A DNA stretch of 29,156 nucleotides from an uncultured Planctomycetia bacterium (GTDB lineage: Bacteria > Omnitrophota > Gorgyraeia > JAGLLT01 > CAZKQD01). The stretch covers positions 1 through 29,156 of the forward strand of contig CAZQVU010000001.1 of assembly GCA_964596885.1 (NCBI GenBank). Reading direction: 5' to 3'. This document shows positions 1,518 through 25,947 of the stretch, in pieces. The stretch's first letter is position 1; each line of letters starts with the position of its first letter. The notes below the pieces were generated by a model. That model saw only the letters and a list, made by a program, of their open reading frames with translations, ran no database searches and had not been told where the DNA came from. A program made the position numbers and the translations under genes.

Positions 1518-3503
1518 CTAAAGTTCCTCTCTGGCGTCAATATCGACTGTTATAAGAAGCCCTGAGGGCCTCCTAAATCGCCTCAGGCTTTTATTTATAA
1601 TTTTTTTAAAAACAGTCAGGTCTTTACATCTTATTATTATATTCAGTCTATAGTTGCCTCTAATCTTGGATATAATTGAAGGTTGAGGTTGTATAATCTT
1701 TATCTCCTTATATCCTTTCTCATTCTTCTTGAGAATCTCAAAAAGTTCTCTTGCCTTTTCTATTATTTTTTTTCTCACCTTGCCTTTTAAGATAATGCAA
1801 TTAAAGTGATAATACGGCGGAAGATTTAATGCCTTTCTTTGTTTTAATTCATTTTTATAAAATTCTATATAATTTAATTCGCATGCCTGCTTAATGGCAA
1901 AATGTGATGGTAAAAAGGTTTGAATTATAACCTTTGTATCTTTATTTTCTTGCCTAACTTGATTTATTATATTATAGAGAGTTGCAAAGACCTTCTCCTG
2001 CATTCTAAAATCTGGAAGATGCATAGCGGTATCTGCATTAATTATACCTATTAAGCCTGTCTTTCTAAAACTAATTCCTTTAAATAAGATTTGAGTTCCA
2101 ATCAGGATATCTATCTTACCTTTATTAAAATCAGATAGAATCTTATAACGTTTGCCCTTCTGAGAGGCTACATCAGCATCTAATCTCTTTACTTTGCTTT
2201 GAGGATATCGGTGGCAGAGGATGCTTTCTAACTTCTCAGTGCCGAATCCAGAATAGTTTATATATGATTTCTTGCATTGGGGACAAATCTTAGGCGGTTT
2301 CTTGCGGTAATTGCAATAATGGCATATGAGTTCTTTTCTATCATAATGATAGATAAGATTCTTTTTACATCTGGGGCATTTAATAATATAGCCACATTCT
2401 CTGCATCTTATAAAAGTTGCAAATCCCCTTCTATTTAAAAAAAGAATAACATTCTTATCCTCCTTCAGTGAATTATCAATGGCATCTTTTAACCTATAGG
2501 ATAATAAACCTTTTCTTCCATAGATATCCTTCTCCTTTTTTAAATCAATAATCTCGACCTTCTCTAAACTATGCTTTTCTCCTCCTTTCTCTCGAATTAA
2601 GGAAAAGACTCTTCTTTTTGCCATATAATAAGACTCAATAGATGGTGTTATGCTGCTTAAAATCAAAGGGCACTTCAACATCTTGGCTCTTAACTCAGCC
2701 ACCTTCTTGGTATTGAATCTGGGTGCATCAGGTTTCTTATAAAGATCGGACTCCTCCTCATCTATAATTATTACCCCTATTTCAGCAAGAGGTGAAAAAA
2801 CAGCAGAACGGCTACCTATAACAATGCGGGCTTTTTTAGATATAATCTGAGCCAGATTATCCTTCTTCTGATTAGTTTTAAGTTGACTATGATATATGGC
2901 TATATCATCTGGATAAAATCTTTTTATTCTCGAGACTAAAATATCTACTGACAGAATCTCGGCAGCAAGCAGGAGAACGCTTTTTTTAATCCTGAATGCT
3001 TCTTTTATAAGTTTTAAATATAAGGCAATCTTATCCTCCTGGTTTCGTGCATGGTATAAATAGACTTTAAAAATCCTATCTGAAATAATCTTTCTTATCT
3101 TATTATATCCACTATTATCTAGTTTGCTATTTATTATCTCTTCTTTATCTATCTTCTTATCTATCCTTTTCCTTTCTATTTTAATCTTAGACTTCTTCAA
3201 GCCCAGGGGAAAGGCGGCATCTAAAACCTCACCCCAACTGGACAAATAATATTGAGACACCTTCTTAGTTAATCTTAACAGATGATTATCAAATATTGGT
3301 TCTTCATCTATGACATCCTGTATAGTTCTTAACTCTTTTATCCTGCTTTTTTTTGCAATGTCTACTACATAGCCTAATATTTCACTTCCCCTAAAATTAA
3401 CTCGCACTCGTTTACCTTTTTTTATCTTAGGAATAAACTTCTGGGGTATCCTATAATCAAAGGGGTCCTTTACCGGTCTTGGAATGGCTACTTTAGCTAT
3501 CAT
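1518..3503 (-). CDS. priA: Primosomal protein N' (PriA), 661 aa, with degenerate helicase motifs
   Basis: N-terminal 3'-DNA-binding domain (VAIPRPVKDPFDYRIP...GKRVRVNF...GYVV); GSRSAVFSP; LFLNRRGFA; 8-Cys Zn region CRECG..CPRC..CHYC..CPQC; GFGTEK; DILIGTQ; C-terminal LPPY and VDIDA. ATG overlaps the udg stop (ATGA). Confidence 0.93.
   Translation of the reverse strand: MIAKVAIPRPVKDPFDYRIPQKFIPKIKKGKRVRVNFRGSEILGYVVDIAKKSRIKELRTIQDVIDEEPIFDNHLLRLTKKVSQYYLSSWGEVLDAAFPLGLKKSKIKIERKRIDKKIDKEEIINSKLDNSGYNKIRKIISDRIFKVYLYHARNQEDKIALYLKLIKEAFRIKKSVLLLAAEILSVDILVSRIKRFYPDDIAIYHSQLKTNQKKDNLAQIISKKARIVIGSRSAVFSPLAEIGVIIIDEEESDLYKKPDAPRFNTKKVAELRAKMLKCPLILSSITPSIESYYMAKRRVFSLIREKGGEKHSLEKVEIIDLKKEKDIYGRKGLLSYRLKDAIDNSLKEDKNVILFLNRRGFATFIRCRECGYIIKCPRCKKNLIYHYDRKELICHYCNYRKKPPKICPQCKKSYINYSGFGTEKLESILCHRYPQSKVKRLDADVASQKGKRYKILSDFNKGKIDILIGTQILFKGISFRKTGLIGIINADTAMHLPDFRMQEKVFATLYNIINQVRQENKDTKVIIQTFLPSHFAIKQACELNYIEFYKNELKQRKALNLPPYYHFNCIILKGKVRKKIIEKARELFEILKKNEKGYKEIKIIQPQPSIISKIRGNYRLNIIIRCKDLTVFKKIINKSLRRFRRPSGLLITVDIDAREEL
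1555..1607 (+). terminator. Possible intrinsic terminator of the TPR gene, lying inside the priA 3' coding region
   Basis: CCTGAGG (1561-1567) pairs with CCTCAGG (1581-1587), extendable by AAG/CTT across a 1-nt bulge; 13-nt loop; followed by TTTTATTTATAATTTTTTT; about 40 nt after the TPR stop. Large loop lowers confidence. Confidence 0.35.
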
Positions 3504-4192
3504 CTCTTATTCTTAATACCTAATTCTCTCATAATCTTCTTCATATCCTCCCAGACTAACCTTTTATCCTGGGGATTCCTTAATAAATACGCTGGATGAT
3601 AGGTAGGCATTAATTTAATATCTTTAAAATTGTAAAACTTACCTCTAATCTGAGAGATTGACCTTTCTTCTTTCAATAACTCCTTGGCAGCAAACGAACC
3701 TAAAGCGCAAATAACTCTGGGTCTTATAATCTCAATCTGCTCTAAAAGATATCCTATGCAGGCCTTTATTTCATCCTCTTTAGGATTCCTATTGTTGGGT
3801 GGCCTATCCTTTAATATATTGGCTATGTAGACCTCTTCTCTTCTAAGACCCATAGCCTTTATTATACGACTAAGAAGCATTCCTGCTCTTCCAACAAAGG
3901 GTCTACCCTGTAAATCTTCTTCTTGGCCAGGCGCTTCTCCGATAAACATTAAATCGGCGTTGGGATCTCCTTCACCAAACACTAAGTTAGTTCTGCTTTT
4001 ATAGAGCGGGCATCTCTTACATTCAAGAACTCTTTTTCTTAATTCATTAAGCCTCGTTGCTTTTTGCATGCTTTTAGCATTATTATCTATAACATCTCCT
4101 TTTACCAAAAAATACTCACTAACACCTAAATTTCTATCAGTCTCAATCAATAATTTAATCTTTTTAATAACATTAGATAACTCTTCTTGCAA
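3500..4192 (-). CDS. udg: Uracil-DNA glycosylase family 4 (Fe-S type), about 230 aa
   Basis: CKRCPL, VFGEG, IGEAPG, PFVG, RPPNNR, TYHPAY motifs. Start placed at TTG 4192 because AGGAGG lies 9 nt upstream; the ORF-track TTG at 4201 directly abuts that SD. Confidence 0.92.
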   Translation of the reverse strand: MQEELSNVIKKIKLLIETDRNLGVSEYFLVKGDVIDNNAKSMQKATRLNELRKRVLECKRCPLYKSRTNLVFGEGDPNADLMFIGEAPGQEEDLQGRPFVGRAGMLLSRIIKAMGLRREEVYIANILKDRPPNNRNPKEDEIKACIGYLLEQIEIIRPRVICALGSFAAKELLKEERSISQIRGKFYNFKDIKLMPTYHPAYLLRNPQDKRLVWEDMKKIMRELGIKNKR

Positions 4193-5291
4193 AATCTGCA
4201 ACCTCCTTGACTGCTTCAGGTTTTACAATCTTAGAGATGTTATTCCTCATCCTTAGTAATATACCTGGATTATCAATTAAACCTTTTAGAAAATCATAAG
4301 CCTCTTTTTTATTATTCACCACTTTCATAACGCCCAATTCTTCCATAAGTTTTGAATTTAAACCCTCCTGGCCAGGTATGGGTGAGATAACTAGCATAGG
4401 TAATCTTTTTACTAAAGATTCGGTCAAAGTTATCCCTCCTGCCTTGGTAACAATTATATCGCTTATTTCCATCAATTCATCCACATTATTGACATATCCA
4501 TAAACCTTAAATGGCGCATCTATCTCTTTGCAAATAAATGTCAGGCGATTATATAACCTTCTATCATAACCACAAATAAATAACAGATTAACCATATCTT
4601 TATAAGGAAGAAATCTCCTCAATAGATATTCATAAGGTCCGATACCTGCTCCTCCTCCCATAATCATTATGGTAAGCTTTTTGGATTTAATACCTAATTT
4701 ATCCCTTATTAAATCCTTATCCTTGCAAGTAGAAAATTCCATCCCTACTGGTATGCCTAATATCTTTATCTTATCCTCATTGATATTACCTTTGATTAAA
4801 TCTATTTTGGTCCTATCGTCTGCAACAATAAAATAATCACTTTCTTTTACAAACCAGACTGAATGGGCTCTATAGTCAGTTACCACTGTCAATAACTTAG
4901 TCTTTATCCTCTTGGTCTTCTTTAAATAACTAACAATATAAGATGAGGAAAAATGGGTAGAGATAACAACATCAAATCCTTCTTTTATCAAAAGACATTG
5001 AAATCTTTTGGTATTAGATATCTCAGCCAGTGCTTTAAAAGATTCAAATATAGGAAGAAAAGTTCTACTATTCGACAGATAAAACAAGAAACCCCAAAGA
5101 TCTTTGAGGTATTTTATCAAAAAGATATAAACATCTGAATATAGAAATCTAAATAGACGATTAGTATAATTTAATATATCTTCTAAGTATATCTCATCAT
5201 CTTTGTTATTCTCTTTAAGAACTTCATATATGCTTTCAGCGGCCTTCTTATGACCAATCCCTACTGAGGCATAAACAATAAGTATTTTCAT
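4173..5291 (-). CDS. UgtP / MGDG-synthase-like diacylglycerol glycosyltransferase (GT28), 372 aa
   Basis: ILIVYASVGIGHKKAA, STHF, VVTDYRAHSVW, MGGGAG, DIIVTKAGGITLTE, PIPGQE motifs typical of the family; AAAGGA 8 nt before the ATG. Confidence 0.85.
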   Translation of the reverse strand: MKILIVYASVGIGHKKAAESIYEVLKENNKDDEIYLEDILNYTNRLFRFLYSDVYIFLIKYLKDLWGFLFYLSNSRTFLPIFESFKALAEISNTKRFQCLLIKEGFDVVISTHFSSSYIVSYLKKTKRIKTKLLTVVTDYRAHSVWFVKESDYFIVADDRTKIDLIKGNINEDKIKILGIPVGMEFSTCKDKDLIRDKLGIKSKKLTIMIMGGGAGIGPYEYLLRRFLPYKDMVNLLFICGYDRRLYNRLTFICKEIDAPFKVYGYVNNVDELMEISDIIVTKAGGITLTESLVKRLPMLVISPIPGQEGLNSKLMEELGVMKVVNNKKEAYDFLKGLIDNPGILLRMRNNISKIVKPEAVKEVADFARRVI

Positions 5292-5321
5292 CGTGGGCTT
5301 CCTTTAATTGGTTAAACGCTT

Positions 5322-5349
5322 AAGGTTCAAGGTTAAAGGTTCAAGGTTA
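5322..5349 (+). repeat. Heptamer tandem array (4 x 7 nt) downstream of the four-helix-bundle gene
   Basis: AAGGTTC AAGGTTA AAGGTTC AAGGTTA read directly (two perfect copies of a 14-mer), in the largest intergenic gap of the - strand run. Confidence 0.92.
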
Positions 5350-5357
5350 AAATATTT

Positions 5358-5741
5358 TTATAAATCTTTGCGATAATGAATTTTCTTTAAGATGCTTCCA
5401 AATATCTTTTTGAACTCGCTTGATTCTTGAATTAGGTGCTCTAATTTCTTACCTTTTGCTATATTAGTTGCCTTTACTATTCTTAACCAATAATTGCTTT
5501 CTTTTGCTTCGCGTAAACAAATAGATATCTTGTATTTGAAATCTTCCTTACTATAGGCACCCTGACTCTCTTCGTAATTAGCCCCTATTGAGGTTGCAGC
5601 TTTTGCTAATTGATACTTAACAACGTCATTGATCTTTGAATACTTAATTTCTTTTAAAAAATTTATTGCTTCTACTGAAAAATCAAACGTCCTTTTTTCT
5701 AAATCTCTTCTCTTTTTGAATTCATCCTCTTTATCTTTCAC
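5358..5741 (-). CDS. Four-helix-bundle protein (23S rRNA IVS protein / Avd-related family), 127 aa
   Basis: DLEKRTFDFS, QLAKAATSIGANYEESQ, SKEDFKYKISICLREAKESNYWL match the family pattern (QL.RA..SI.AN..E; F...L..A..E..E..YWL); GTG start with AAGGA 4 nt upstream. Confidence 0.88.
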   Translation of the reverse strand: MKDKEDEFKKRRDLEKRTFDFSVEAINFLKEIKYSKINDVVKYQLAKAATSIGANYEESQGAYSKEDFKYKISICLREAKESNYWLRIVKATNIAKGKKLEHLIQESSEFKKIFGSILKKIHYRKDL

Positions 5742-5743
5742 TT

Positions 5744-5771
5744 TATCCTTTAACCTTTATCCTTTATCCTC
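5744..5771 (-). repeat. Heptamer tandem array (4 x 7 nt) upstream of the four-helix-bundle gene, inverted relative to 5322-5349
   Basis: On the - strand GAGGATA AAGGATA AAGGTTA AAGGATA; 22/28 identical to the + strand array at 5322-5349; overlaps the last codons and stop of gmhB. Confidence 0.88.
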
Positions 5772-6308
5772 TACTATTATCCAATCAACTGCTTCCTTTA
5801 AATCTTTCTTTATATAATCTGGCTTTATCTGCCAAGAAAGCACATCATCTTTTTTGGTATTACCTGATAAAACTAGAATTGTTCTACAACCTATTCTCTT
5901 GCCTGCTTCAATATCTGTCCTTTTATCTCCAATAAAAAAGGTTTCTTTAAAATCGATACTCAATCCCTCTGTAGCCTGTCGAAAAAGCCCTACTTTGGGT
6001 TTGCGACAGAGACAGTTATCCTCATCCCTATGTATACAGTAATGAGTAGACCTTATCCTGCCTCCTGCCTTTTCTATCTCTGAAAGCATCTTAGCGTTAA
6101 CCTTTTTAAGGTCTTCCTTCGTATACAATCCCTTAGCAATCCCTGCCTGATTAGAAATAACTATGATATCATATCCGCGGGAATTTAATTTCTTTATAGC
6201 AGAGAGGGAACCGGGTAGAAATTCAAAATCCTCTGGACTCTTAACATAACCACCTTCGGGGTCTTTATTTATTACTCCATCTCTATCTAAAAATATTATC
6301 TTATTCAC
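5757..6308 (-). CDS. gmhB: D-glycero-D-manno-heptose 1,7-bisphosphate phosphatase-like HAD IIIA enzyme, 183 aa
   Basis: FLDRDGVIN, ISNQAGI, Zn motif CIH...CLCRKP, IGDKRTD; GTG start overlapping the upstream stop. GmhB versus histidinol-phosphatase-type substrate is inferred from glycan context. Confidence 0.85.
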   Translation of the reverse strand: MNKIIFLDRDGVINKDPEGGYVKSPEDFEFLPGSLSAIKKLNSRGYDIIVISNQAGIAKGLYTKEDLKKVNAKMLSEIEKAGGRIRSTHYCIHRDEDNCLCRKPKVGLFRQATEGLSIDFKETFFIGDKRTDIEAGKRIGCRTILVLSGNTKKDDVLSWQIKPDYIKKDLKEAVDWIIVEDKG

Positions 6309-10075: not shown

Positions 10076-10941
10076 AGTTTTAAATCTCTAAACCTATCCT
10101 CATCCCATTGTCTAATTATAGCAAACATCTTGGACAGTCTATCTTTATAGGTATGATAATTGATTGCTAAATCATAGCCAGATCTGGCTATAGTCTCCCT
10201 TTCTCTATCGTTTTCTAGATAATATCGTATTAATCCAATCAACTCTTCTTTTGAGTTATAAACTATCAAGTGACGATTTTCAACAAATAACTCGCCAAAA
10301 CCATTATCCTTTATCCTATTTGTAAGAAGCATAGTGCCACAACTTAAAATCTCAAACATACGCATATTAATATCGTTATTCAGGGAGCAATTTAAACCTA
10401 TCTTTGAACTACTATAAATTTTACTCATCTCAGTATAATGAGCCTTGCCAATAAATGAATTAGGAAATTCTCTTTTAACAGTCAGGAGAATATCTTCCCT
10501 TAAACTCCCTTTACCACCAAATGAACCCACAAAACCCACATCATATCTCTTTTCAATGTTCTCTCTTTTGTGAATTTCGGGCTCACAGGCAAGAGGCAAC
10601 CAGAAAACCTTTCTCTTTAAATCCTGACTGAGTTTTTCAGCCCCTTCTTTCTGGCTTGCAAATACAAAATCATAATGTTTTGCTTGATGCAATATCTTCT
10701 TGTAAGGTTTTTTAAGATGGGTATCTATAGCCAAAAAGACGGCTGGATGTAGTCTCTTTGAAATATCAAATTTATAATCGCCGTGGTCTATCCTGAGATA
10801 TAAATCAAATCTCTCCCTTACCTTTTTAAAACCTTCAACCGGAAAGTGCTTAAACTCTAAATTGCTTTTTTTAAGCACTCTTTCAAAATAACATCCAGTA
10901 GTATCATCTCTATCCTTATTAAAAAGCAGGGCTATTCTCAT
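10072..10941 (-). CDS. CgeB-like GT-B glycosyltransferase (Glyco_trans_1_2 type), 289 aa
   Basis: WLPLACEP, YDVGFVGS, YSSSKIGLN, NMRMFEILSCG..LLT, ERETIARSG, HTYKDR. Confidence 0.82.
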   Translation of the reverse strand: MRIALLFNKDRDDTTGCYFERVLKKSNLEFKHFPVEGFKKVRERFDLYLRIDHGDYKFDISKRLHPAVFLAIDTHLKKPYKKILHQAKHYDFVFASQKEGAEKLSQDLKRKVFWLPLACEPEIHKRENIEKRYDVGFVGSFGGKGSLREDILLTVKREFPNSFIGKAHYTEMSKIYSSSKIGLNCSLNNDINMRMFEILSCGTMLLTNRIKDNGFGELFVENRHLIVYNSKEELIGLIRYYLENDRERETIARSGYDLAINYHTYKDRLSKMFAIIRQWDEDRFRDLKL

Positions 10942-10949
10942 AGCAGATA

Positions 10950-11756
10950 TTATAATTGTATATCGTATAATAATATACTAGCCGGACCAGCCTTAGTGTC
11001 TGCCTTGACCAAGATTGGTATTCTCTTTTTATTATCTGTAAACCAGATAGTTCCGCTTACCTCATGTCGGGTGGTGGCCTTAACCGGCCTTAAATGAAAA
11101 TATAATTTAATTGTTTTAATCCTGCCAAAAGGTGTTTTGAGTTCTTCCCTATCCTTTAACTGGACATAAAGAAATCTATCCCTTTTTCTGCTTTTTATAT
11201 TGATTTCATATCCCTCTTTCAACTTATCTATATCTAATAATCGTATAAGATACAAAGCACTAAGGGGATCCTGGGTATCAGGTAAGATTCTTATCTTCTC
11301 TCCCTCTATTGTAAGATAGAGGTCTTTTTGATTATAGAATACTTCTTTTTTATTTTTTCTATGTCCTCTTGCCTGAGACTCCTCTTTAAAATATAGTGAA
11401 TGCAGTCTATCTACATCCATATAAGAATGGAGGCTACCTTCTATCTCAAAAAATAATGAGACGAAGTCTGATGTCCTACCCCAGGCTAACAGATGATAGA
11501 CAAAACGATCTTTGTATCTTTTTATCTCCTCAACTCGAATAACTACCTTACCTGCAGGAAGACCTAAGTATCTAAGCGTATAAGCTATCTTCTCACCGGC
11601 TTTAAATGGTTCATCTAGTGACGAATGTAAGGTTGATTCAATTTGAGACTTATATTTTTTTGTGGCTAAATCCCAACCAAATAGTTGATAGAATATATAT
11701 AGACAGATAAAACCAATAATAAAAAATATAAAAAATTTAGTAATCTTATTTCTCAT
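10950..11756 (-). CDS. DUF3108-like exported protein with N-terminal membrane anchor, 268 aa
   Basis: N-terminal hydrophobic stretch; GEKIAYTLRYLGLPAG, TQDPLSALY, IWFTDNKKRIPILV resemble the DUF3108 pattern as recalled. Confidence 0.7.
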   Translation of the reverse strand: MRNKITKFFIFFIIGFICLYIFYQLFGWDLATKKYKSQIESTLHSSLDEPFKAGEKIAYTLRYLGLPAGKVVIRVEEIKRYKDRFVYHLLAWGRTSDFVSLFFEIEGSLHSYMDVDRLHSLYFKEESQARGHRKNKKEVFYNQKDLYLTIEGEKIRILPDTQDPLSALYLIRLLDIDKLKEGYEINIKSRKRDRFLYVQLKDREELKTPFGRIKTIKLYFHLRPVKATTRHEVSGTIWFTDNKKRIPILVKADTKAGPASILLYDIQL

Positions 11757-13525
11757 TTCGAATCCTCCAATTTAAACACCTTAATGTCTCCAAAGTCTTT
11801 AATTAGTATCAAATCAAGTTTTTTATCAAATTTATCAAGTTGCTTCTCAATTGCCAAACGGTAACTTTTTTCATATCTATCTAGATGCAGAATAACATAT
11901 CTAACTCCTAAACTCTTTAAGATTTCTGTTGCTTCAGGCTTAAGTATATCTCTAACCTTCTCGCTTATTGAATAAGCCTCAGTATCTGGCTGTGCTCCAT
12001 TTAATAACCTTTTTTTATGAACCCTTTGATAGAATAAATATTCAACATCATTACCTATAGGATACTCGGCTACGATCATATCATTATTCTGCTGCTTTAA
12101 CCATTTATAAACTTGAGGAATTCTACTCATATCTACTGTCTTAAAGGGTGGGAAGTTTATAAATTCAAAAATAAGAAAAATTATTAAACAGAAACTAACT
12201 ATCATTTTTTTCCAATTATTAGATAAGCACTCAATCAAAAATTTAAAACCGAAACCAGCCATAGCGCATAAAGCAAGCATAACTACTATTCCAAAACGTG
12301 CCCCATTACGAAAAAAAGGTGCAATCTTATAGACCCAATATGAAGGCAGATAGATGTTAGTATTCAAGATAATAAACTTAGGTGGAAGGGAAAACAAAAA
12401 AGCGACTATAGCTAAAGACACAAAGAATCCTAAGGTAAAATCATCCTTTTCTTTCTTTATTGCTTCTTTAATTATAGGCTTTTTTTGATTGTTCCAATAG
12501 CGGTATCCAAAAATTGAAAATAAAATAATACTAATCCCCAGATATAGACTATGCTCCTGCAGATTCTCTCCATAAAAGATTGAGCCTACAAGCCTCTGTG
12601 CAAAAGAACCAAAAAATGGATGATTGGCAGCAGGTAAAATATAATTAAATACTCTGGCAGCATAAATGTGGAGTTGACTTATTGGTCGCTCAGCCATTTG
12701 TCTCTGTAGCCAGGGCGTCAGCTGGCCTTCAAAAAAATATGACTTAAATATGGGGTAGATATATGGAAGGCACACTAAAACAGCAACCAGAATGCAAACA
12801 GATAGAAGAAGTATATTTTTTAATATTCCCACATTAGGTGTAAATATTGTCTCTCTTTTAATAAATAATTTCCTAAAAAATTTAAAAGCAAGAAATGTTA
12901 AGGCTGCAATCAGCATAAAATAGCCATAATATGTATCAGATAAAAGAGATAGAGCAAAAAATAATCCACATAATCCTGCACTGCTAAATGTCCTTTCATT
13001 ATGAAATTTAAACATAAAAAGAATAAAAAGCGGCATCCACTGAATATTAGCCAGGGTTATATGACAAGCATGAGCAAAGTGATATGGACAAAAAGAGAAT
13101 GCAAAACCAACTAAAAAAGAAGCCCATTTATTCTTGGTTAAATAATAGGATAGAAAATACATAGCTATGCCAGCTAATGGAAAGGTAAGAAATATTATAA
13201 AGTTATAAGCAAATATTTCATCTACTAAAACAGTTAAAATTAGAAGTGGGTAATTGGCAAAAGAAAGATTTATGTTTTTTGTTATATCCTTAGATAGATC
13301 TACGCCAAAAGGACTGGCTATAATAGGCACAAATTGCGGTGATAAATCATGCTGCCAGGCATATTTTACCCACCAGGCATACCATAAAGCCTCAAGTAGA
13401 TCCCCTTTATAATCATATATCTGAGATCGCATATTAATTATAAGGGGCCAGGTAAACAAAGCAGCCAATAATATAAATAATATAAAGATTATAATCTCGA
13501 ATTTAAACCTTCTTAAAAGACTCAT
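11753..13525 (-). CDS. Polytopic YfhO-like membrane protein, putative GT-C glycosyltransferase, 590 aa
   Basis: About 11-13 hydrophobic segments; acidic GD after TM1 then W..WW; FAFSFCPYHFAH, QWMPLF, FRNGARF; C-terminal soluble domain IPQVYKWL...EYP...LGVRYVILH. Confidence 0.7.
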   Translation of the reverse strand: MSLLRRFKFEIIIFILFILLAALFTWPLIINMRSQIYDYKGDLLEALWYAWWVKYAWQHDLSPQFVPIIASPFGVDLSKDITKNINLSFANYPLLILTVLVDEIFAYNFIIFLTFPLAGIAMYFLSYYLTKNKWASFLVGFAFSFCPYHFAHACHITLANIQWMPLFILFMFKFHNERTFSSAGLCGLFFALSLLSDTYYGYFMLIAALTFLAFKFFRKLFIKRETIFTPNVGILKNILLLSVCILVAVLVCLPYIYPIFKSYFFEGQLTPWLQRQMAERPISQLHIYAARVFNYILPAANHPFFGSFAQRLVGSIFYGENLQEHSLYLGISIILFSIFGYRYWNNQKKPIIKEAIKKEKDDFTLGFFVSLAIVAFLFSLPPKFIILNTNIYLPSYWVYKIAPFFRNGARFGIVVMLALCAMAGFGFKFLIECLSNNWKKMIVSFCLIIFLIFEFINFPPFKTVDMSRIPQVYKWLKQQNNDMIVAEYPIGNDVEYLFYQRVHKKRLLNGAQPDTEAYSISEKVRDILKPEATEILKSLGVRYVILHLDRYEKSYRLAIEKQLDKFDKKLDLILIKDFGDIKVFKLEDSK

Positions 13526-14703
13526 TTCATTTTCTTCTTCTGCATCAATAACATAACAATACCTAAAGCAAATATTGTCACCACTACCACAAAGATAATT
13601 TTCGGTATATTGCTATACGAAATCTTTTCGGTGGAATTGATTGATTGATTCTCTTTCTCTTCTTTTTCTTCTGATTCTTCTTCTAAAAAAGCAATATTCT
13701 TTCTTAACAAGGCTTCTTCCCATACGGGCTTAAAGCCTACACCTTCAAACTCTAACTTAACGAAATCATGCGTAATATCAATATTGCTAATCCAATTTAT
13801 ATTTTCTTTAGTAAAGGAACGACCAATAACCTCTGCAAAAAAATAGGCATCATCCTCTATGCTGGTAATATCAGCAGTAGACTTTGGAATAAATATAATC
13901 TTGCCACTTACCGCATCATTAGTCTCCAAATCAAAAGAAAGTCCTGCTGAATTAATTGACTCAGATGATAAAAGCAACCGCATACCTTCCTTTTCCTCCC
14001 ACCTGCGTAGGTTATCAGAAAACATCTTATCTTTGTTATTGGCAAAGATAAAAGCATCTCCTTTATTTAATATGCCCTCGAGTTTAACAAATTCCTCATT
14101 CTTAGAGACAGAATCAACCTCACCTCTGTATGTATCTATAGCCAGTCTAAGTTCCTTAGGGCTGGTAGCAATCAGGAAAAAGTCATCTATCTGGGTGTAG
14201 GCAGCCAAATCCTTTTGTCCATGAAAAGGTTCAAGTTTCTTATCCCGGTAGGTTATCCTATAACCCTCATAATTGACTTCTTTTAAGGGCTTTCTTTTCT
14301 TTATCAAAATATTTAGAGCCTCTCTGAAGATATCATCTTCGCCAGTTATCTTAATAATAACAATAAACTTAGAATAGATTGGTTCACCCTCTTCATTATA
14401 AGGTTTATCAGGTAAAAAAATGGCTCCGGCAATTGTCTTAAGAGGAAGTTCTGCATAAAGCTCTTTTATAGCCGTGTATTTCTCAGGATATTCTCTTATT
14501 TCAAAACGCTCTCTCCAGAGATTCATTACAAAAGAAAGGCCAGGATCATCAGGATTATTCTTAATCAAGATTATACCGTCTGACTCTGCAGGGAGAAACT
14601 TTAACTCTTCAATCTCAGAATAGACTACCTCAGTTAAACTTAAAACAATTAAAATGCAAACTCCTGTAATAATACAAAGTAACTTGCTATGACCCTTAAT
14701 CAT
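13522..14703 (-). CDS. Exported protein with N-terminal signal and C-terminal TM anchor, DUF3352-like, about 393 aa
   Basis: Signal-like MIKGHSKLLCIITGVCILIVLSL; EVNYEGYRI and YTQIDDFFLIATSPKELRLAID resemble DUF3352; acidic linker, TM, then QKKKMK. Start at ATG 14703 (GAGGAG upstream, overlaps the upstream stop). Confidence 0.65.
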   Translation of the reverse strand: MIKGHSKLLCIITGVCILIVLSLTEVVYSEIEELKFLPAESDGIILIKNNPDDPGLSFVMNLWRERFEIREYPEKYTAIKELYAELPLKTIAGAIFLPDKPYNEEGEPIYSKFIVIIKITGEDDIFREALNILIKKRKPLKEVNYEGYRITYRDKKLEPFHGQKDLAAYTQIDDFFLIATSPKELRLAIDTYRGEVDSVSKNEEFVKLEGILNKGDAFIFANNKDKMFSDNLRRWEEKEGMRLLLSSESINSAGLSFDLETNDAVSGKIIFIPKSTADITSIEDDAYFFAEVIGRSFTKENINWISNIDITHDFVKLEFEGVGFKPVWEEALLRKNIAFLEEESEEKEEKENQSINSTEKISYSNIPKIIFVVVVTIFALGIVMLLMQKKKMK

Positions 14704-15661
14704 CTTTTTCTCTCCTCTTTTTTGCCAATTCAAAATTCAAAACAATGTGACTATCTGACATTTTAACATTATAGTTAAATTGATAAAAATTTGCTTCAAA
14801 TACCCTCTTTAATATCTGAGAAACAAACCAGATATCTTTTCTGGCGTCTTTGAAATCAGTCTCTGGCTTGAAGATAAAATTGACCTCTCCTTTATTTATT
14901 CTATTTTTATAATCATTGGACAAGTAGATATAAACCTCATCTAAATTATCTATAGTCAGAAAAAAATTATAAGAGGTTTTCTCTAAAACTTTAGTCAGGT
15001 AATAATCTATTATACCAGTTTTATTGTCTATGTATATAAATAATGGTTTGCGATAGCGCTCATTTAAAAAATTCTTCAACCGATTCTCCTTTCGCTTGGT
15101 TATGTTAAAGCAATCAATTAGGCTGTGTAATCTTTCTTTAGACGTAGATAAGAAATATGTATCTTTATATTGGGCAAATGACTTAAAATCCTTCCCTTTA
15201 TCTAATTCAGTTCTATCCCAAATTAAAAACCCCTGTCTTTTAGTTAACTTATAATCTTTACTTATGCCCGGTCTATTTAAATATAAAAAGAGTGGAATCT
15301 CTGCAAAGCGAGTAAGTTTCTTTGATTTAATTAATAAGGTGTAGTCAAATTCCTCCTTTTGAGATTCATCAACCAGCACAATAAAAGAAAGTGGTGAAAA
15401 AAAATATCCTGCTACCTTAAGAACACATCTTGAAAGGCGTCCAATTAAAAACTTTTTTCCAAATCTAAAATTGATAATTTCATCAAATAGAGGGAAGCTC
15501 TCTTTGTCTAAATTAAATCTTAAGGCTACAAAATGTCCCTCAACAGAAATCTTGCCTAGATTCGCTTCTTCTTGCGGCAAAAAGCTCCAGATAAATATAA
15601 TGAATACAAAAACAATAATGATAAAGAAAACCAGACCAAAGATTCTCTTAATTAAACTCAT
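14696..15661 (-). CDS. Membrane-anchored exported protein, paralog of 13522-14703, 321 aa
   Basis: N-terminal TM; FAQYKDTYFLSTSKERLHSLID aligns with the neighbour's YTQIDDFFLIATSPKELRLAID; C-terminal halves also align by eye. Confidence 0.65.
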   Translation of the reverse strand: MSLIKRIFGLVFFIIIVFVFIIFIWSFLPQEEANLGKISVEGHFVALRFNLDKESFPLFDEIINFRFGKKFLIGRLSRCVLKVAGYFFSPLSFIVLVDESQKEEFDYTLLIKSKKLTRFAEIPLFLYLNRPGISKDYKLTKRQGFLIWDRTELDKGKDFKSFAQYKDTYFLSTSKERLHSLIDCFNITKRKENRLKNFLNERYRKPLFIYIDNKTGIIDYYLTKVLEKTSYNFFLTIDNLDEVYIYLSNDYKNRINKGEVNFIFKPETDFKDARKDIWFVSQILKRVFEANFYQFNYNVKMSDSHIVLNFELAKKRREKDD

Positions 15662-16764
15662 TCTTCTTTAAGGTATTCTTTCTCTTTAAAGAACTTTATT
15701 AATTTTAGAATTAGCCCGATTACTACAAAAAGAAAAGCCCAGTTTGCCAGTTGTTCTGAAATAATCTTCATATCGAGAATCAATAAAATAGCGCATACAA
15801 GAAGCAGAATAGCAAAAGTGCCAATAAAGATATCGGCATATAGATTATATCTGCCGAGGGTATTATCTCTTAACTGCCTCATCCTTAACTTAAATTTATC
15901 CTTCCTACCGTATTTAACCACCTGATAGATCTTACCTATAGAAATCGAGCTAATTAAAATTAGCCAGAAATCTAATTCATACCAAAAAAAAGTATAAGTT
16001 GATATGATTTTACTTATAAGATATAGGATGGAAAAAATTGAAATTGCTGGAAGATATGTCCAAAAATCAGATTTTATTATTGCAACTAACCTCTTATCAG
16101 TGATAGAGAAGAAGGCGATAGAGTATAAAAGCCATAGGCTTAAAAAACCAATTCCACCCCACAAACACAATTCCCAGTTAACTGGCTTGTTGCCGCGCTT
16201 AGCAAACCAACGAGTCGTTTCCCAGATTGTATATGCCCTCATAAAGACCAAATTTCTATTCTTATAGTTTTTTACCGTTAGTTTCTTAAAATCAGGTTTA
16301 GAATTAATCCTTTTTTTAATAAATACTAATTTATTCAACCCTTCTTTAGTTAATTCAACTGGTAAGATGAGACTTTTCTTAAGCCACACTCCAGTCTTTT
16401 CAGCCTTCAGATTGCCCAAATGATGCTCTCTACAATATACCTCAATAACTTGATCTGGGTTATGAAAACGAAGGATAAAATTGAGAACCAAACCATCTTT
16501 CTGGGGTGTATAAAAAATAAGGGTTGCTCTTTTTTCTTCCATTGAAACATAGAAGTCTTTATCTCTTCTGTTGCCCCAGCCAGTTAATAAATAAAACCTA
16601 TCAGTCTTTTCAGTTGGATAGAAATTATATGTCGCCTCAAATTTTATAAAATTGGATTCTACCATAGTTTGATAAAAAAAGATTAGCAAGAAACCAAATA
16701 TTACCGCTCCGATAATATAGAAAAGGAGGCTCTTATCTTCTATGAATTTCGCGAATATAGACAT
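15658..16764 (-). CDS. Membrane protein with an extracytoplasmic beta-rich domain and about 5 C-terminal TMs, 368 aa
   Basis: N-terminal TM; soluble domain LTGWG...KEGLNKLVF; multiple TMs ending ISEQLANWAFLF; ATG with AGGAG. Confidence 0.7.
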   Translation of the reverse strand: MSIFAKFIEDKSLLFYIIGAVIFGFLLIFFYQTMVESNFIKFEATYNFYPTEKTDRFYLLTGWGNRRDKDFYVSMEEKRATLIFYTPQKDGLVLNFILRFHNPDQVIEVYCREHHLGNLKAEKTGVWLKKSLILPVELTKEGLNKLVFIKKRINSKPDFKKLTVKNYKNRNLVFMRAYTIWETTRWFAKRGNKPVNWELCLWGGIGFLSLWLLYSIAFFSITDKRLVAIIKSDFWTYLPAISIFSILYLISKIISTYTFFWYELDFWLILISSISIGKIYQVVKYGRKDKFKLRMRQLRDNTLGRYNLYADIFIGTFAILLLVCAILLILDMKIISEQLANWAFLFVVIGLILKLIKFFKEKEYLKEE

Positions 16765-16769
16765 CTCTC

Positions 16770-19700
16770 CTATCTACCCTTTTTTCTTCTTATAATTGGT
16801 TGTATAAAAATAACCAGTATACAGGATAAGAATGTTGGTATACTTGCCAGAAGGCCTATCCAGAACTGATTTTGAGGAGCATATTTTATCACAATGATTA
16901 CTGGTTGTCCACTCTTTTCTATTTTAGATACATACCAACCATTGGCATAACCATTTATTATAAAGTGATTTGAGATTATTTTGCGCCTGCCATCTGGCTT
17001 AAGAATATAGGCTTGCCATTTGTCATCATAAGACTCATTGAAGATAAGAAAAAAGTTGCTATCCTCTTGACAGTTAACCTCTAATTTATACCTAACAGGA
17101 CTTTTATCTAAAACTTTGACTGGATTCAGCCTTCGCGTCATTTTTAACGACTCAGGAACGAGTAGCAGATAATAGCCTTCTCCTCTATGATGAATAAATC
17201 TTATTGAATTTAAACCCTCCTTTAAACTGATTGCTTCTTTATGAATATATTCAATCTTTCTTCTATTAAACCTTAAATTAAACCTTTTTTGATTGACTAC
17301 AATCTTCTTTGATGCTGGCAGATAATTAATGTCATCTACTGGATAAGGATAAAGATAAATGTAAAATCTATTATTAAAGGGTATCTTTAAGTTGATATTG
17401 AACTCATTTGCATAAAAAATGAAATCTTTACTAAAACTAATACCTCTTTTAAGACCATTATGTAAAATAGACTTTTGATTTGTTGCAAAAGACAAAATAT
17501 TTATACCCGGTTCTAACTTAAGGTCAATAAGTCTCACTTCACTATCCTTATCGGCTTCTAACATATTCTTTTGAACCAACTCATCATTTAAATAAACATA
17601 AAGCCCTCTTCTCATCCTAAAACTCTTACAGGAAAATTTTAGATTTGTACGTATTATATCCTGGCTCTGATTAATAATCTTTAACTTAAGTGGTAATCCT
17701 GGACCTTTTATCCACAATATCTTTTTTGAAGTTGTGTCGCGATAATAGGTGTCCTCAATGAAGTAAAAGTTCAAATATTGTCTAATCTCCTCATCTGGTA
17801 CTTCCTTCTTATAAAAAATATTATCCTCCTCGGTTGAAAATAAAAAACAGGGGTTGCGGTTAATCTCATTAGATATATCCTTATTATTATAATGAATCTC
17901 TATATCAAATAGATTCTCTCTTTGCAAAAGATTAAGCAGTGACGATGGTAAATCTTTCTCAAAGACGATATGGTAATTAAACAAATCCGTGCGACTTAAA
18001 GGTTCAAAAGCTCTGATATCGCCATTTAAAAAGATAATCTTCTTGGTCGTATAAATATGAGGAATCTTATTCTCTAAGAGATAAAAATCCCATCTACCAA
18101 AGGATCTTTCAAATCTTAAATCTCTTTGCATAGCCAGTTTGTTAGATATCAATTCGGGACTTTCGTATCTATCATAAAAGTCCCATCTGATATCTCTTTC
18201 ATATAAAAGATAACCGATATTAAAAAGTGGCAAGACTTTACTGGCAATCATATGAGATTTCTGTAATCTCAAATCTTTTAGTTTCTTTCTCTCATCAGTA
18301 TTTGTTTTATCTATATTTAGATAAAGCCACTTATATAACAAATTATCCATATTCGGGATGTGATAAGGCGAGCCAAATATTCCCTCAACAACAGGAGTTA
18401 TAAGAGGCTTTTCAGTAAAATAACTAATAACTGGTTCATATCCTGTATAACCCCAATCAGTAATTCTTCTACCCATAGAGGGCAAAACCATTATTCTAAA
18501 AAAATCCCTTTTTTCTGAAAGCCATCTACTGGCATCATATACATAGTGAGGAATCTTAATATAGTTAGGAGGAAGAAATTCTCTTTCTTCTTCAGTAGCA
18601 AACATCCTGCCGGTGATAATGGGATAGGCATAAACCATAATAGCCACGAAGATTAAAACAGGTATAATTATAGAACCTAAAGGCGCTCGTCTTATCCTCT
18701 GTATAAGCCAATCTATAAAGATTCCAATCATAACTGCAAATCCTAAGACTGTCAAAAGAGACCATTTATACCAGGGACTCCTTATAATCCAAAACCCTGG
18801 AATAACCTTTAGGCAAATCTTATAAATAAAGGAAAAAGGAGGATGGATACCGCAGGAGAAGATAATCCCTAAAAGCGCAATGATTATAAAGAATGGGGCA
18901 AAGATTGAACTCCTCAAGTTAAATATAGACAAAAAAGCGCAAATTGCTGGAATAATACCCAAAATTAAAAAAAAGGCATTCTTTTGATAAAATTCACTAT
19001 AAAGAACATAAGGCTCCTCGTATTCGGCATACCAGGTCCAGGCACCCTGCAATCTTAAAACATTAAGGAAACTGGTATCCTTTGACCTTTCTTTAATACC
19101 TTGCTGGACAGACTCCTTATAAGAAACTAAAGGTCCTATCTGGGTTGATTTTAATAGACGCATACCTTGAGGATAAATCCAGAATGCATTAACCAATAAG
19201 ATAATTAATATAAATAAGGTCAAGAATTTTAAAAATCTCTTAGCGCTTAATTCCTTTTTTAAAAGTACTAAAATAATAAAATTATACAAAAACCACAAGA
19301 TAAAAATGCTTATGCAGACATAGGCAATAGGCGGATTAACTCCAATACCCGAAAGCAAAATAGCCACAATACCTGCCAGACAAACATACTTAAGCACCTG
19401 ATTAGTCTTAAGTCCATTGACAAATAAACCCATAAGTATTGGCATAGCAACATACGCTGAGATGTTGGCAATGTTAAACCCTAACCATATGGGTTCTAAG
19501 TACAGATTAAACATATAAAAACCAACTACACAAAGCGCAATGGACGGATGCGGATGTCTTCTATTCAGGATTGAAAATAGAAGATAGTAGATAGATGCAC
19601 CACTCAGCATAAACCAAAAAATGAATTGAAACTTTTGAGCCGAAACAATGGAAAAACCAAGTTTCTGTAACAGGGCTGGTAAGAAAAGAAAAAATAAGGC

Positions 19701-19958: not shown

Positions 19959-20924
19959 TTAAATATTATTCTCTTTTTGAGCAAAGATAACTATACAATC
20001 TCCCATCTTAAACAGATCTGTAATAAAATCAAAAGGAGCAGTTATAATTATTAAGAATTTAGAAAACTTGCTTTGAGTGATACTAGAAGCTATAGTTCCA
20101 ACCGATTTAAAAAAAAGTTTTTTTATTTGAAAACCATTATTACTAATAATTTTTTTTAGCGTTTTGTCATTGAAATGATATAAATGACGAGGAACATCCA
20201 AGCCTGCCCAAGATTTACCAAAAATTTTTGACGCTAAACTCTCAATATTTGGGGTCTCAATTATAAGATAACCCCCTGGTTTTAAAATCTTATATGCCTT
20301 TTTTAAATATTTGGATGGGTGGTGTAAATGCTCTAAAACACTTAACATCCTAACTACATCAAAAAAATCATCAGGAAAATCTGAATCTAACAAATCTAAA
20401 GTCTTTACATTTAGACCTCTTGCGCGAGCTCGTTGGGCAGCTTCATCATTTATTTCGAGCCCATAAACCTGCCAACCCAGCTCTTTTAGAGGATAAATAA
20501 ATAAGCCATCTCCACAACCTACATCTAAAATTTTCCCCTTTCTAATATTATGGGGAGCAGAAATGAATCTACGCCTCCCTATCAGAGCTAAACCTTGTTC
20601 TATCTTCCTAGACCAAAAAGTTTTACTTTGATCAAAACTCCCATAATAATAAGAAAATGTAGCTTCTCTTATTTTATCTTTTATTCTATCAAACAAAGGA
20701 TAAAATCCTTTAAGCTTCCGGTCAAGCTGCCTAAAGGAGTAATAATCATCGTGGTAATATTTGTTTATTTCATTATTATCAGGTCTTGGATTCAAATAAA
20801 CCAAACCACAATTTTTACATTTAACTATATTAAATTTCTTATCCTTGTTTTGGCAATTGACTAAATCTCTATAATATAATTCATAAACAGAGCTACCGCA
20901 AAGATCGCAGTTTACATGTTCCAT
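19959..20924 (-). CDS. Class I SAM-dependent methyltransferase with N-terminal Zn ribbon, 321 aa
   Basis: CDLC...CKNCGLVYLNPRP; ILDVGCGDG; GLEIN; VLEHLHHP; LKPGG; PRHLYHF. Confidence 0.9.
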   Translation of the reverse strand: MEHVNCDLCGSSVYELYYRDLVNCQNKDKKFNIVKCKNCGLVYLNPRPDNNEINKYYHDDYYSFRQLDRKLKGFYPLFDRIKDKIREATFSYYYGSFDQSKTFWSRKIEQGLALIGRRRFISAPHNIRKGKILDVGCGDGLFIYPLKELGWQVYGLEINDEAAQRARARGLNVKTLDLLDSDFPDDFFDVVRMLSVLEHLHHPSKYLKKAYKILKPGGYLIIETPNIESLASKIFGKSWAGLDVPRHLYHFNDKTLKKIISNNGFQIKKLFFKSVGTIASSITQSKFSKFLIIITAPFDFITDLFKMGDCIVIFAQKENNI

Positions 20925-24040: not shown

Positions 24041-24059
24041 CACAGCAGATTTGAAATTA

Positions 24060-24470
24060 TTATCTATCCTCTTTAATCGCATCGCTGAATTCACATATTA
24101 CTGCTGCAACTAACATAAAATAGGCAATATTTGAAATCTGTTTAGTAAAAAAAATAAACTTAGTATATGAAAAGATAACTCCCGTAACAATCAATAATAT
24201 AAAAGCTATTGCAAACGGAATGCTGCTTTTTTTAAATAGAAAACTGCCCACTTTATTAAATTTAGAGATGATTATCGGCTTGAGCAATTTAGATAAAAGG
24301 CCATAGACCAATACTGTCAGAATCTCAGCAAAAGCCAAAAGATAATTGATCCTTTTACCCGCTTCTTTTTCTATTGCTATACCTTTTAGATAGAGAAATA
24401 AACAGAGAGTAAACAATAGAATAAAAATCCACAACCATCCCTTTTTCAAGAATTTTGGCAACCTTTTCAT
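24060..24470 (-). CDS. Small 4-TM membrane protein, 136 aa
   Basis: Four hydrophobic segments; C-terminal TKQISNIAYFML resembles the end of the 368-aa protein; ATG overlaps the upstream TGA. Confidence 0.7.
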   Translation of the reverse strand: MKRLPKFLKKGWLWIFILLFTLCLFLYLKGIAIEKEAGKRINYLLAFAEILTVLVYGLLSKLLKPIIISKFNKVGSFLFKKSSIPFAIAFILLIVTGVIFSYTKFIFFTKQISNIAYFMLVAAVICEFSDAIKEDR

Positions 24471-25945: not shown

Positions 25946-25947
25946 CT

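Follow-up and report, generated by a model that had tools for sequence, protein, structure and literature searches.

Why is a small gene in the middle of a bacterial operon enclosed by two inverted arrays of a seven-nucleotide repeat? The question is raised by contig CAZQVU010000001.1 (assembly GCA_964596885.1) from an uncultured bacterium placed by GTDB in the Omnitrophota, of which positions 1 to 29,156, hereafter called the window, were analysed. The gene lies between gmhB and a GT28 glycosyltransferase gene and encodes a four-helix-bundle protein of the S23p/Avd-like family, which was first found in the intervening sequences (IVS) of 23S rRNA. As judged by comparison with related loci, positions 5322-5771 of the window are an acquired, self-contained cassette within a protein-coding operon, and the two arrays are its ends.

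Two inverted heptamer arrays and the gene between them

On the + strand, positions 5322-5349 read AAGGTTC AAGGTTA AAGGTTC AAGGTTA. The genes of the locus are on the - strand, so the purine-rich array that begins with GAGGATA is the 5' arm on the transcript (Table 1). Aligned in register 0, the arms form 22 Watson-Crick pairs out of 28 plus one G.U pair, and a shifted alignment gives a perfect 11-bp inverted pair, AAGGTTAAAGG, at 5329-5339 / 5747-5757. Tandem Repeats Finder called both arrays with a period of 7, and a repeat search returned them as an inverted pair of 29 nt at 83%. The paired fraction reaches 79-86% at shifts of 0, ±7 and ±14 nt versus 17-67% at the remaining shifts, so that pairing of the flanks in several registers, as proposed in the initial annotation of a 450-bp cassette made from the letters of the window, is correct. 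The array sequences, their coordinates and the 22/28 match given there were reproduced to the base, the 11-bp pair is real, and the arrays do tightly bracket the 384-nt open reading frame (ORF), which starts 2 nt after the 5' array and ends 8 nt before the 3' array. The observation that the window holds no further such arrays also stood, given that no other AAGG period-7 run of at least three units, and no second copy of the four-helix-bundle gene, was found in the 29 kb.

The two-unit pattern AAGGWTMAAGGWTM, with at most one mismatch, occurs nine times in the window where 0.46 occurrences are expected, and none of 100 shuffles reached nine. Six of these matches are the two arrays. The remaining three are 14-nt near-matches with one mismatch (10305-10318, 14226-14239 and 19076-19089); they are isolated two-unit occurrences inside coding regions, for which an inverted partner was not noticed.

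The duplex of the two arms was calculated at -24.1 kcal/mol (z = -4.0), a value equalled by none of 500 dinucleotide shuffles. In the predicted fold of the 491-nt sense RNA (minimum free energy (MFE) -94.2 kcal/mol, z = -3.3), the arms make up the closing stem, as anticipated in the initial annotation; the MFE, centroid and ensemble predictions agree on this point, and in the ensemble 22 of the 28 bases of the 5' array are paired to the 3' array. The predicted stem is prolonged by 8 bp between the host sequences UUGAUUGG and CCAAUUAA. This extension was considered as a sign of insertion into the loop of a pre-existing hairpin and rejected, as it is not conserved in empty alleles. By eye, no comparable extension was seen at the related loci L002 and L006, and L004 has at most a weak one of 5 bp made of AT pairs only; the extension in the window may be due to chance. 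A search of the window against Rfam at gathering thresholds returned zero RNA families.

The encoded protein scored above the cut-offs of both profile hidden Markov models of the family, with 55.9 bits for Pfam PF05635 (cut-off 33.8) and 76.6 bits for TIGR02436 (cut-off 24). Its sequence/profile match to PDB entry 2RLD had an E-value of 8e-25, and 2GSC was likewise matched. An AF2 monomer model (pLDDT 90.5) contains helices at residues 2-29, 36-59, 65-91 and 98-122. With this model, Foldseek retrieved 2RLD (TM 0.75-0.87) and 2GSC (TM 0.62-0.80), two pentameric crystal structures of five chains each. It also retrieved Avd, both as 4DWL and in the complex of reverse transcriptase (RT) and RNA, 8UB7 (probability 1.00; TM 0.65-0.67 when normalised to the query and 0.75 when normalised to the target). 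Membership in the 23S-IVS family and kinship with Avd, both proposed at the outset, are thereby supported. The family motif has been described as GxxRxxxSxxxNxxE (PMC3936711). At this place the window protein has Q44-x2-K47-x3-S51-x3-N55-x2-E58, in which Q replaces G and K replaces R; the S, N and E of the motif are invariant in the family alignments. With a dN/dS of 0.04-0.11 at saturated dS, the cassette ORF is under strong purifying selection. No match for the 127-aa protein was obtained in PADLOC or PHROGs. The PF05635/TIGR02436 family is large, amounting to 6,968 clusters at 50% identity in a single-sequence search.

Filled and empty sites, and the same cassette elsewhere

Comparison with syntenic relatives shows that the cassette was inserted where their gmhB and GT28 genes overlap or nearly touch. 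In the nearest GT28 orthologs on usable contigs, which are 62%, 51% and 49% identical and belong to the Omnitrophota, the gene order DegT/methyltransferase-gmhB-GT28-UDG-priA is present without the cassette, and gmhB and GT28 either share a 4-nt overlap (ATGA) or are 15 nt apart. Such empty junctions are those of L014, L015/16 and L017-19. A metagenome scan with gmhB gathered 53 loci, of which only those of the window's own species are filled (98% gmhB identity, 100% identity of the four-helix-bundle protein). In at least 17 further lineages of the same scan gmhB is directly followed by GT28, with a gap of -4 to +25 nt, and the empty sites foreseen in the initial annotation therefore exist.

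The native gmhB product ends in ...AVDWII followed by five variable residues (L014, L015 and L017). When positions 5322-5771 are deleted in silico, the reading frame continues as ...AVDWII-VKRLTN-stop, followed by AGGAAGcccacgATG in a gap of 12 nt. As the excision restores a normal gmhB end and the ribosome-binding site of GT28, the insertion is placed six codons before the gmhB stop, and gmhB now takes its last codons, E-D-K-G-stop, from the 5' array. Its present stop codon (5759-5757) is located inside that array, 15 nt ahead of the GTG of the enclosed gene. The displaced host segment, 5292-5321, is not common to cassettes of other contexts.

A second site lies between proA and nadD. It is filled in L002, L003, L162 and L161 (nadD 89-100% identical) and empty in L163 (86% identical), where the TAA of proA is followed by 12 nt and then by the ATG of nadD; where the site is filled, the cassette takes up precisely the stretch from TAA to ATG. 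At this one locus the number of units in the 5' arm differs among L002, L003 and L162, and the 3' arm is constant. In the same way, the gmhB-GT28 locus of a 98%-identical strain (L001) has a 5' arm that reads GAGGATA AAGGTTA AAGGTTA AAGAATA, with 3 of 28 positions changed, and an identical 3' arm, the ORF differing by about 1% as counted by hand from the alignment. To judge from this pair of strains, change seems to be quicker in the 5' arm than in the remainder of the unit.

A target-site duplication is visible neither at gmhB-GT28 nor at proA-nadD. An exact 11-nt direct repeat, TTAAAGGAAGC (sense; 5801-5791 and 5307-5297), was considered as a candidate and rejected, because native and conserved AVDWII codons separate its upstream copy from the 5' arm. 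The two copies are found just outside both arms, beside UUGAUUGG and CCAAUUAA, and would be about 44 nt apart after conceptual excision.

Relatives with 78-82% protein identity are found in unrelated surroundings, namely between proA and nadD, after a tRNA-Lys/Leu/Gly cluster and before a phosphotransferase system (PTS) gene with frr nearby, and between an epimerase and an aminotransferase gene. Nine cassettes from five contexts can be aligned from the first heptamer to the last CCTT unit, and their host flanks are 33-48% identical, which equals background. By this alignment the arrays are shown to be the ends of a transferable unit. Across six independent contexts, identity amounts to 82% in the 5' arm and 72% in the 3' arm, as compared with 55% at third codon positions and 86% at first and second codon positions. 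That the arms exceed third positions indicates that the unit sequence itself is constrained, and not complementarity alone. In the close clade, RNAalifold recovered the closing stem with compensatory pairs; pair 97/571, for instance, occurs as UA, CG, GC and AU.

Several of these loci have peculiarities of their own. In L004 (5382-5480) and L005 (1100-1250), the last 9 nt of the ORF and the 3' arm, a unit of about 50 nt (GATATCTAAtgtattttactttaacc...), are tandemly duplicated, with two copies in L004 and three in L005. The cassette of both loci directly follows the tRNA-Lys/Leu/Gly cluster and would therefore be co-transcribed with the tRNAs. L021 contains a copy with AAGGTTA-type units (4001-4384) in which an in-frame TAG falls inside the invariant GANYEE motif (N-Y-stop-E), and which would accordingly be a pseudogene or be recoded; a divergent second cassette with units of the GTCCGAA / TTCGGAC type lies about 600 nt upstream (3043-3417). 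One polysaccharide operon (L006) harbors two cassettes 2.4 kb apart, at 426-791 and 3170-3553. One has heptamer arms of the AAGGWTA type, and the other, divergent and coding for 121 aa, has the hexamer arms TAAGGT / ACCTTA, which means that a period of 7 is common but not obligatory.

The host operon of the window is part of a single co-directional run of about 27 kb of envelope-glycan genes, and no promoter- or terminator-like site was found on the sense strand of the cassette. This context supports the location "inside an mRNA" that had been assigned to the cassette, as does the ancestral overlap of its two neighbours. Domains of reverse transcriptases, recombinases and transposases are absent from the window; for RT domains this covers its 24 ORFs of at least 110 aa, and none is listed beside closely related cassettes. 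Elsewhere in the glycan cluster (11753-13525, 14696-16764 and 20912-25996), ORFs of 590, 321, 368, 1060, 136 and 509 aa have no Pfam match at E <= 1e-5. These large ORFs adjoin a GT-C/AftD-like protein of 1047 aa and a carbamoyltransferase, and the cluster looks like an uncharacterised envelope-polysaccharide pathway of this Omnitrophota bacterium.

Table 1. Positions of the cassette, its parts and the adjoining host features in the window
Feature	Position	Strand	Remarks
Whole cassette (5' heptamer array, four-helix-bundle gene, 3' heptamer array)	5322..5771	-	450 nt = 150 codons; delimited by cross-context alignment, in-silico excision and absence from syntenic relatives
5' arm, GAGGATA AAGGATA AAGGTTA AAGGATA (read from 5771 to 5744)	5744..5771	-	Purine-rich; AAGGA motifs resembling Shine-Dalgarno sequences; ends 2 nt before GTG
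Gene of the 127-aa four-helix-bundle protein (PF05635 / TIGR02436; S23p/Avd-like)	5358..5741	-	384 nt; GTG start; pI 9.5
3' arm, in sense TAACCTT GAACCTT TAACCTT GAACCTT	5322..5349	-	Pyrimidine-rich; begins 8 nt past the ORF stop
gmhB (D-glycero-D-manno-heptose 1,7-bisphosphate phosphatase)	5757..6308	-	NF006506, 185 bits (cut-off 178); last codons E-D-K-G and stop come from the 5' arm
Displaced host segment: putative former gmhB tail K-R-L-T-N-stop, then AGGAAGcccacg	5292..5321	-	AGGAAGcccacg = GT28 Shine-Dalgarno sequence and spacer; from in-silico excision
GT28 / MGDG-synthase-like glycosyltransferase gene, downstream	4173..5291	-	Overlaps or abuts gmhB in relatives
Host sequence UUGAUUGG (gmhB codons V-D-W)	5781..5788	-	Pairs with CCAAUUAA; adds 8 bp to the predicted closing stem
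CCAAUUAA, partner of the host-flank extension	5304..5311	-	Predicted fold

Recurrence of the design among relatives

A scan of one genome per species gave 347 confirmed relatives. The best 80 loci of the 347 were analysed and yielded 76 non-redundant cassettes; 384 ORFs from the same loci served as controls for flank complementarity, with the 95th percentile as the threshold. These 80 loci belong to Omnitrophota, Cloacimonadota, WOR-3, Latescibacterota, Stahlbacteria, Marinimicrobia, Calditrichota and many cultured Bacteroidota. Flank complementarity exceeds the threshold in 62 of the 76 cassettes, and a period of 7 fits best upstream in 55/76 and downstream in 54/76. Homologs do carry such flanks, and orthologous loci may lack the gene, so that two of the three outcomes named as refuting in the initial annotation turned out in its favour; its structural and evolutionary parts hold. 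The median stem measures 27 nt with 22.5 Watson-Crick pairs. Arrays consist mostly of three to four units (range 3-5), and among 66 cases, the 5' arm has a purine fraction higher than 0.6 in 61 and lower than 0.4 in not a single one. Out of 63 strong period-7 arrays in the 588 kb of loci, 38 are within 130 nt of a four-helix-bundle gene, a zone that represents 9.4% of this DNA.

The unit itself changes from one lineage to another. It is AAGGATA / AAGGTTA in Omnitrophota and allies, AAAGTAA in Flavobacteriia, GATGAAA in Latescibacterota and CAAGTTC / CAAGAAC in Stahlbacteria, and second copies within the same loci use GGACGAA, GTCCGAA or the hexamer TAAGGT. The opposite arm changes along with it. 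In L006, for example, the rare unit AAGGCTC is matched downstream by GAGCCTT. Plasmids of Nostoc flagelliforme and Aulosira carry (AATTCAA)x4-5 with (TTTTGAA)x4-5, whereas the N. punctiforme PCC 73102 plasmid pNPUN02 carries (AATTCGC)x4 with (TTGCGAA)x4, AATTCAA/TTGAATT versus AATTCGC/GCGAATT being lineage-specific matched arms in Nostoc; on pNPUN01, (AGGTCGG)n is found with (CCGACCT)n. Perfect inverted arrays of 4-5 x 7 nt are seen in named Nostoc and Aulosira plasmid copies. The comparison shows the two arms to co-vary across lineages while keeping the period of 7 and a length of about 27-28 bp. The design of a gene within inverted heptamer arrays recurs in at least eight bacterial phyla. 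In addition, the similarity of the units correlates with protein identity (rho = 0.40).

Two simpler explanations of the unit were tried. A heptamer with a stop triplet could act as a general device that places a stop in all frames; this is not general, as it is true of AAGGATA, AAAGTAA and GATGAAA and false of AATTCAA, AATTCGC, GGACGAA and AGGTCGG. The idea that the 5' arm is merely the preferred Shine-Dalgarno (SD) sequence of the host is weak, because only 7 of the 22 host genes in the window have an SD-like leader. As an impression only, the composition of the units resembles the initiation style of the host, being SD-like in Omnitrophota and A-rich in Bacteroidota.

Some loci depart from the common layout. 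In L095 (5760-5925), (CACAGAT)x4 and (AGTGAWC)x4 bracket only about 100 nt without an ORF, with a predicted fold of -54 kcal/mol, and the same locus has heptamer tracts of up to 122 nt that do not adjoin any detectable four-helix-bundle gene. In L076 (4366-4425) and L082 (1817-1863), a purine arm next to the 3' arm of a cassette pairs with it in a perfect hairpin, of 24 and 19 bp respectively. On a Chondrinema litorale plasmid (L157, 368-724), an RND efflux operon has the cassette between its adaptor and permease genes. The flanks of this copy contain ACTG-type heptamers (AACTGTA, TAACTGA and CAGTGAA) that resemble the TAACTGA repeats of Beggiatoaceae and cyanobacteria (PMC4679880). A scan of viral contigs with the family alignment returned no relatives, and two weak phage matches were obtained otherwise.

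A probable RNA-level cassette, rival explanations and known systems

In the survey, 51 of the 76 cassettes point the same way as the genes on either side, no cassette is antisense to both of these genes, and the polarity of the arms, purine 5' and pyrimidine 3', is fixed relative to the ORF. Together with the lack of transcription signals, this favours a function tied to the sense transcript. It is considered probable that the unit is a horizontally acquired IVS-type cassette carried in an mRNA and that its arms form a closing stem in the transcript. Having neither promoter nor terminator of its own, it would be transcribed together with its operon. As soon as the 3' arm is transcribed, the two arms would anneal into an imperfect helix of about 28 bp from which the ORF is looped out, in the manner of rRNA IVS at helix 45. 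As the arms are tandem heptamers, the helix could form in several registers and slippage would be tolerated; slippage would also alter the number of units between strains. The helix would bury the SD-like motifs of the cassette, 2 nt from the GTG, so the protein might be made mainly co-transcriptionally, or while ribosomes that end at the gmhB stop keep the stem open. Experiments on the IVS of Coxiella, Leptospira and Salmonella suggest by analogy that the helix is probably a substrate of RNase III, and its cleavage would release the cassette RNA and leave gmhB and GT28 on separate messages. Most likely, the closing stem insulates the insert and gates translation of its gene. More speculatively, the conservation of the arms well above synonymous sites and the way in which they track the protein clade suggest that the pentameric protein recognises its own heptamer repeats.

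Several observations weigh against this proposal. The stem of the window is imperfect, with 5 of 28 positions not pairing. The test that could have told RNA-level from DNA-level selection was not significant, with 55 G.U versus 43 A.C mismatches (p = 0.27). Of the seven copies sampled on cyanobacterial plasmids, three run antisense to the genes on either side, including two located between cas2 and cas1, and one copy has flipped arm polarity. Neither a target-site duplication nor a gene for a transposase, recombinase or reverse transcriptase was detected, so mobility is deduced solely from how the cassette is distributed. Identity of the empty alleles is 45-62% (GT28) and 86% (nadD), and at such distances the junctions are not resolved to the base. 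Moreover, the one phage copy that was inspected (31% identical) has no arrays, and the survey covers the 80 loci nearest to the query clade and the seven plasmid copies, not the whole PF05635 family.

The antisense copies between cas2 and cas1 are those of a Nostoc sp. TCL26-01 plasmid (L156) and of the Anabaena cylindrica PCC 7122 plasmid pANACY.01 (L158). L158 has its pyrimidine arm upstream and its purine arm, made of AAAGTAA units, downstream, in reverse of the usual order. An earlier survey listed 18 family members in cas loci and left them unexplained (PMC3936711).

A first alternative, compatible with the closing-stem proposal but on its own doubtful as the primary explanation, is that the heptamers serve in the first place as binding sites, in RNA or DNA, for the encoded pentamer, for autoregulation or for assembly of a cassette ribonucleoprotein (RNP), the complementarity of the arms being secondary. 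Such a role would account for arms that are 82% and 72% identical against 55% at synonymous sites, for a unit type that follows the protein clade, and for cassettes of one locus that carry different units (L021, L040 and L006). An array of 3-5 units is in keeping with the pentameric state of the structural relatives 2RLD and 2GSC, the protein is basic, and its relative Avd is part of an RNA-protein complex (8UB7). However, slippage or gene conversion, that is concerted evolution, could equally keep the units uniform, and binding alone needs no reverse-complementary arms, yet the arms co-vary.

It is rather unlikely that the cassette is a DNA-level element whose arrays are terminal inverted repeats (TIRs) or hairpin sites in single-stranded DNA, moved by a recombinase or transposase encoded elsewhere, with the RNA stem as a by-product. 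Indeed, the transferable unit ends exactly at the arrays, both sites occur with and without the cassette, the array pairs without an ORF and the arm-arm hairpins are what derivatives akin to miniature inverted-repeat transposable elements (MITEs) would give, and G.U is not favoured over A.C. Nevertheless, a target-site duplication is visible at neither site and no transposase or recombinase is present in the window or beside the cassettes. A fixed purine-5'/pyrimidine-3' polarity and a sense bias of 51:0 are unexpected for symmetric DNA termini, and the sole relative that has been studied experimentally works at the RNA level (PMC4990558).

A much less plausible alternative is a host regulatory module, a domesticated and immobile stem-ORF-stem that uncouples or tunes gmhB and GT28. 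The cassette does split a gene pair that ancestrally overlapped and was translationally coupled, and in the predicted fold the base of the stem places the end of gmhB beside the GT28 ribosome-binding site, but a 78-82%-identical cassette with the same arrays is found in unrelated operons and the cassette is missing at most orthologous loci. Finally, coincidence, in which an SD-rich leader and an unrelated pyrimidine tract would be complementary by chance in an AT-rich window (32.9% GC) where AAGGA looks like a ribosome-binding site, can practically be dismissed, as none of the 100 and none of the 500 shuffles was as good as the observed arrays, SD-like leaders are confined to 7/22 host genes, and the comparative data, with the architecture recurring with different units in at least eight phyla, refute it.

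Going beyond the closing stem, one may conjecture, at long odds, that Avd/S23p-like pentamers bind heptamers in a sequence-specific manner and that the cassettes are "self-addressed" RNAs or RNPs, in which the arms are both stem and binding sites. Such units would spread through transcripts (rRNA, tRNA operons and mRNAs), possibly via an RNA intermediate in view of the kinship with Avd, the cofactor of the reverse transcriptase of diversity-generating retroelements (DGRs). In that case the intergenic STRR, TAACTGA and Bacteroidota heptamers, long unexplained, would be orphan arms of this system, its derivatives without an ORF or its targets in trans.

No function has been assigned to the very large PF05635/TIGR02436 family, and the origin and spread of the rRNA IVS and the role of their ORF have stayed unexplained for about 30 years. 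Perfect examples of the cassette in culturable hosts (Nostoc punctiforme PCC 73102, Flavobacterium, Chryseobacterium and Elizabethkingia), natural compensatory variants and filled and empty alleles make folding, cutting and spread testable. Such insertions come between genes that are translationally coupled and change the ends of genes, and annotation currently calls them ordinary "hypothetical" genes.

How does the cassette compare with known systems? Like an integron cassette, it is a promoterless single-gene unit, co-directional and transcribed by its host, with foldable imperfect inverted repeats. The attC of integrons is however a single 3' site, recombined by IntI at attI into arrays at one locus, whereas repeats of the type seen in the window bracket the gene, copies turn up in unrelated operons, and an integrase was detected neither nearby nor anywhere in the window. 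The Correia elements of Neisseria are small non-autonomous repeats between co-directional genes that are co-transcribed with operons and cut by RNase III, their inverted termini pairing in the mRNA; they affect the processing of host transcripts, are non-coding, and have non-repetitive TIRs and a TA duplication. The window cassette has inverted termini, as MITE- and Correia-type elements do, and like the Correia elements it lies between co-directional genes, but it encodes a conserved protein, ends in tandem heptamers and shows no target-site duplication.

With Avd (4DWL, 8UB7; PMC10053308) the protein shares the four-helix-bundle fold and a basic character; the relatives are pentameric, and Avd contacts RNA in its complex with the reverse transcriptase. 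However, sequence identity is about 12%, and the window contains no reverse transcriptase and no template or variable repeat of the DGR type. Avd genes are not described as bracketed by inverted heptamers, and the one phage copy sampled lacks arrays.

Cyanobacterial STRR sequences are tandem heptamer repeats as well. TAACTGA heptamers are known as direct repeats from Beggiatoaceae, Cyanobacteria and Bacteroidetes, where they precede many different genes, with a single inverted case (PMC4679880). That study makes no mention of "intervening", "S23" or "helix bundle" and does not link the heptamers to four-helix-bundle genes. Both kinds of repeat resemble the arrays in their tandem 7-nt units in 2-6 copies, their mostly intergenic position, often abutting a start codon and at times overlapping the end of the upstream ORF, and their patchy distribution over phyla that overlap those of the cassette hosts. 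The unit of the window is however AAGGWTA, and TAACTGA-like units were met only in L157.

The closest parallel is the rRNA IVS, and the term "IVS-like" used at the outset is supported both by family membership and by the published features of Coxiella. The 23S IVS of Coxiella burnetii measures 428-444 nt, has a terminal stem of 28 bp and encloses an S23p ORF (Warrier et al. 2016, PMC4990558). The ATG of S23p is preceded by three tandem GACAGAT heptamers and a degenerate fourth, with a copy number that differs from strain to strain, and the first repeat is cleaved at its start by RNase III (PMC4990558). The window cassette differs in that it lies between two protein-coding genes of an operon and not in helix 9, 25 or 45 of 23S rRNA, and no 16S or 23S rRNA motif was found near any of the 76 related cassettes. 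Its ORF is under strong purifying selection and follows an SD-like leader, in contrast to the decaying and apparently untranslated ORF of Coxiella; its unit is AAGGWTA instead of GACAGAT; and RNase III cleavage, reported for Coxiella, is a prediction in its case.

ORFs of the PF05635 family appear in the earlier literature as rRNA insertions of the Candidate Phyla Radiation (CPR), in cas loci and as relatives of Avd. A literature search did not find a description of an inverted-heptamer-array rule or of operon-borne IVS-like cassettes, save for the single-IVS note in Coxiella, although an earlier description is still possible. An S23p cassette of the IVS type in an operon, as an example of a cross-phylum design rule not yet formulated, is thus apparently new. 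What the window cassette and the rRNA IVS of Coxiella and Leptospira (PMC4990558) have in common is the S23p protein family, a similar size (450 nt and, in Coxiella, 428-444 nt), tandem heptamers of strain-variable number directly 5' of the start codon, arms of 28 nt (22 Watson-Crick pairs and one G.U) that enclose the ORF like the 28-bp stem of Coxiella, a sporadic and insertion-like distribution, and, as proposed for the window cassette, transcription within a host transcript. This suggests that the rRNA IVS is one habitat of a more general cassette, a gene capped by inverted arrays of about 4 x 7 nt, whose further habitats are ordinary operons, the positions after tRNA genes, the inside of cas operons, and plasmids.

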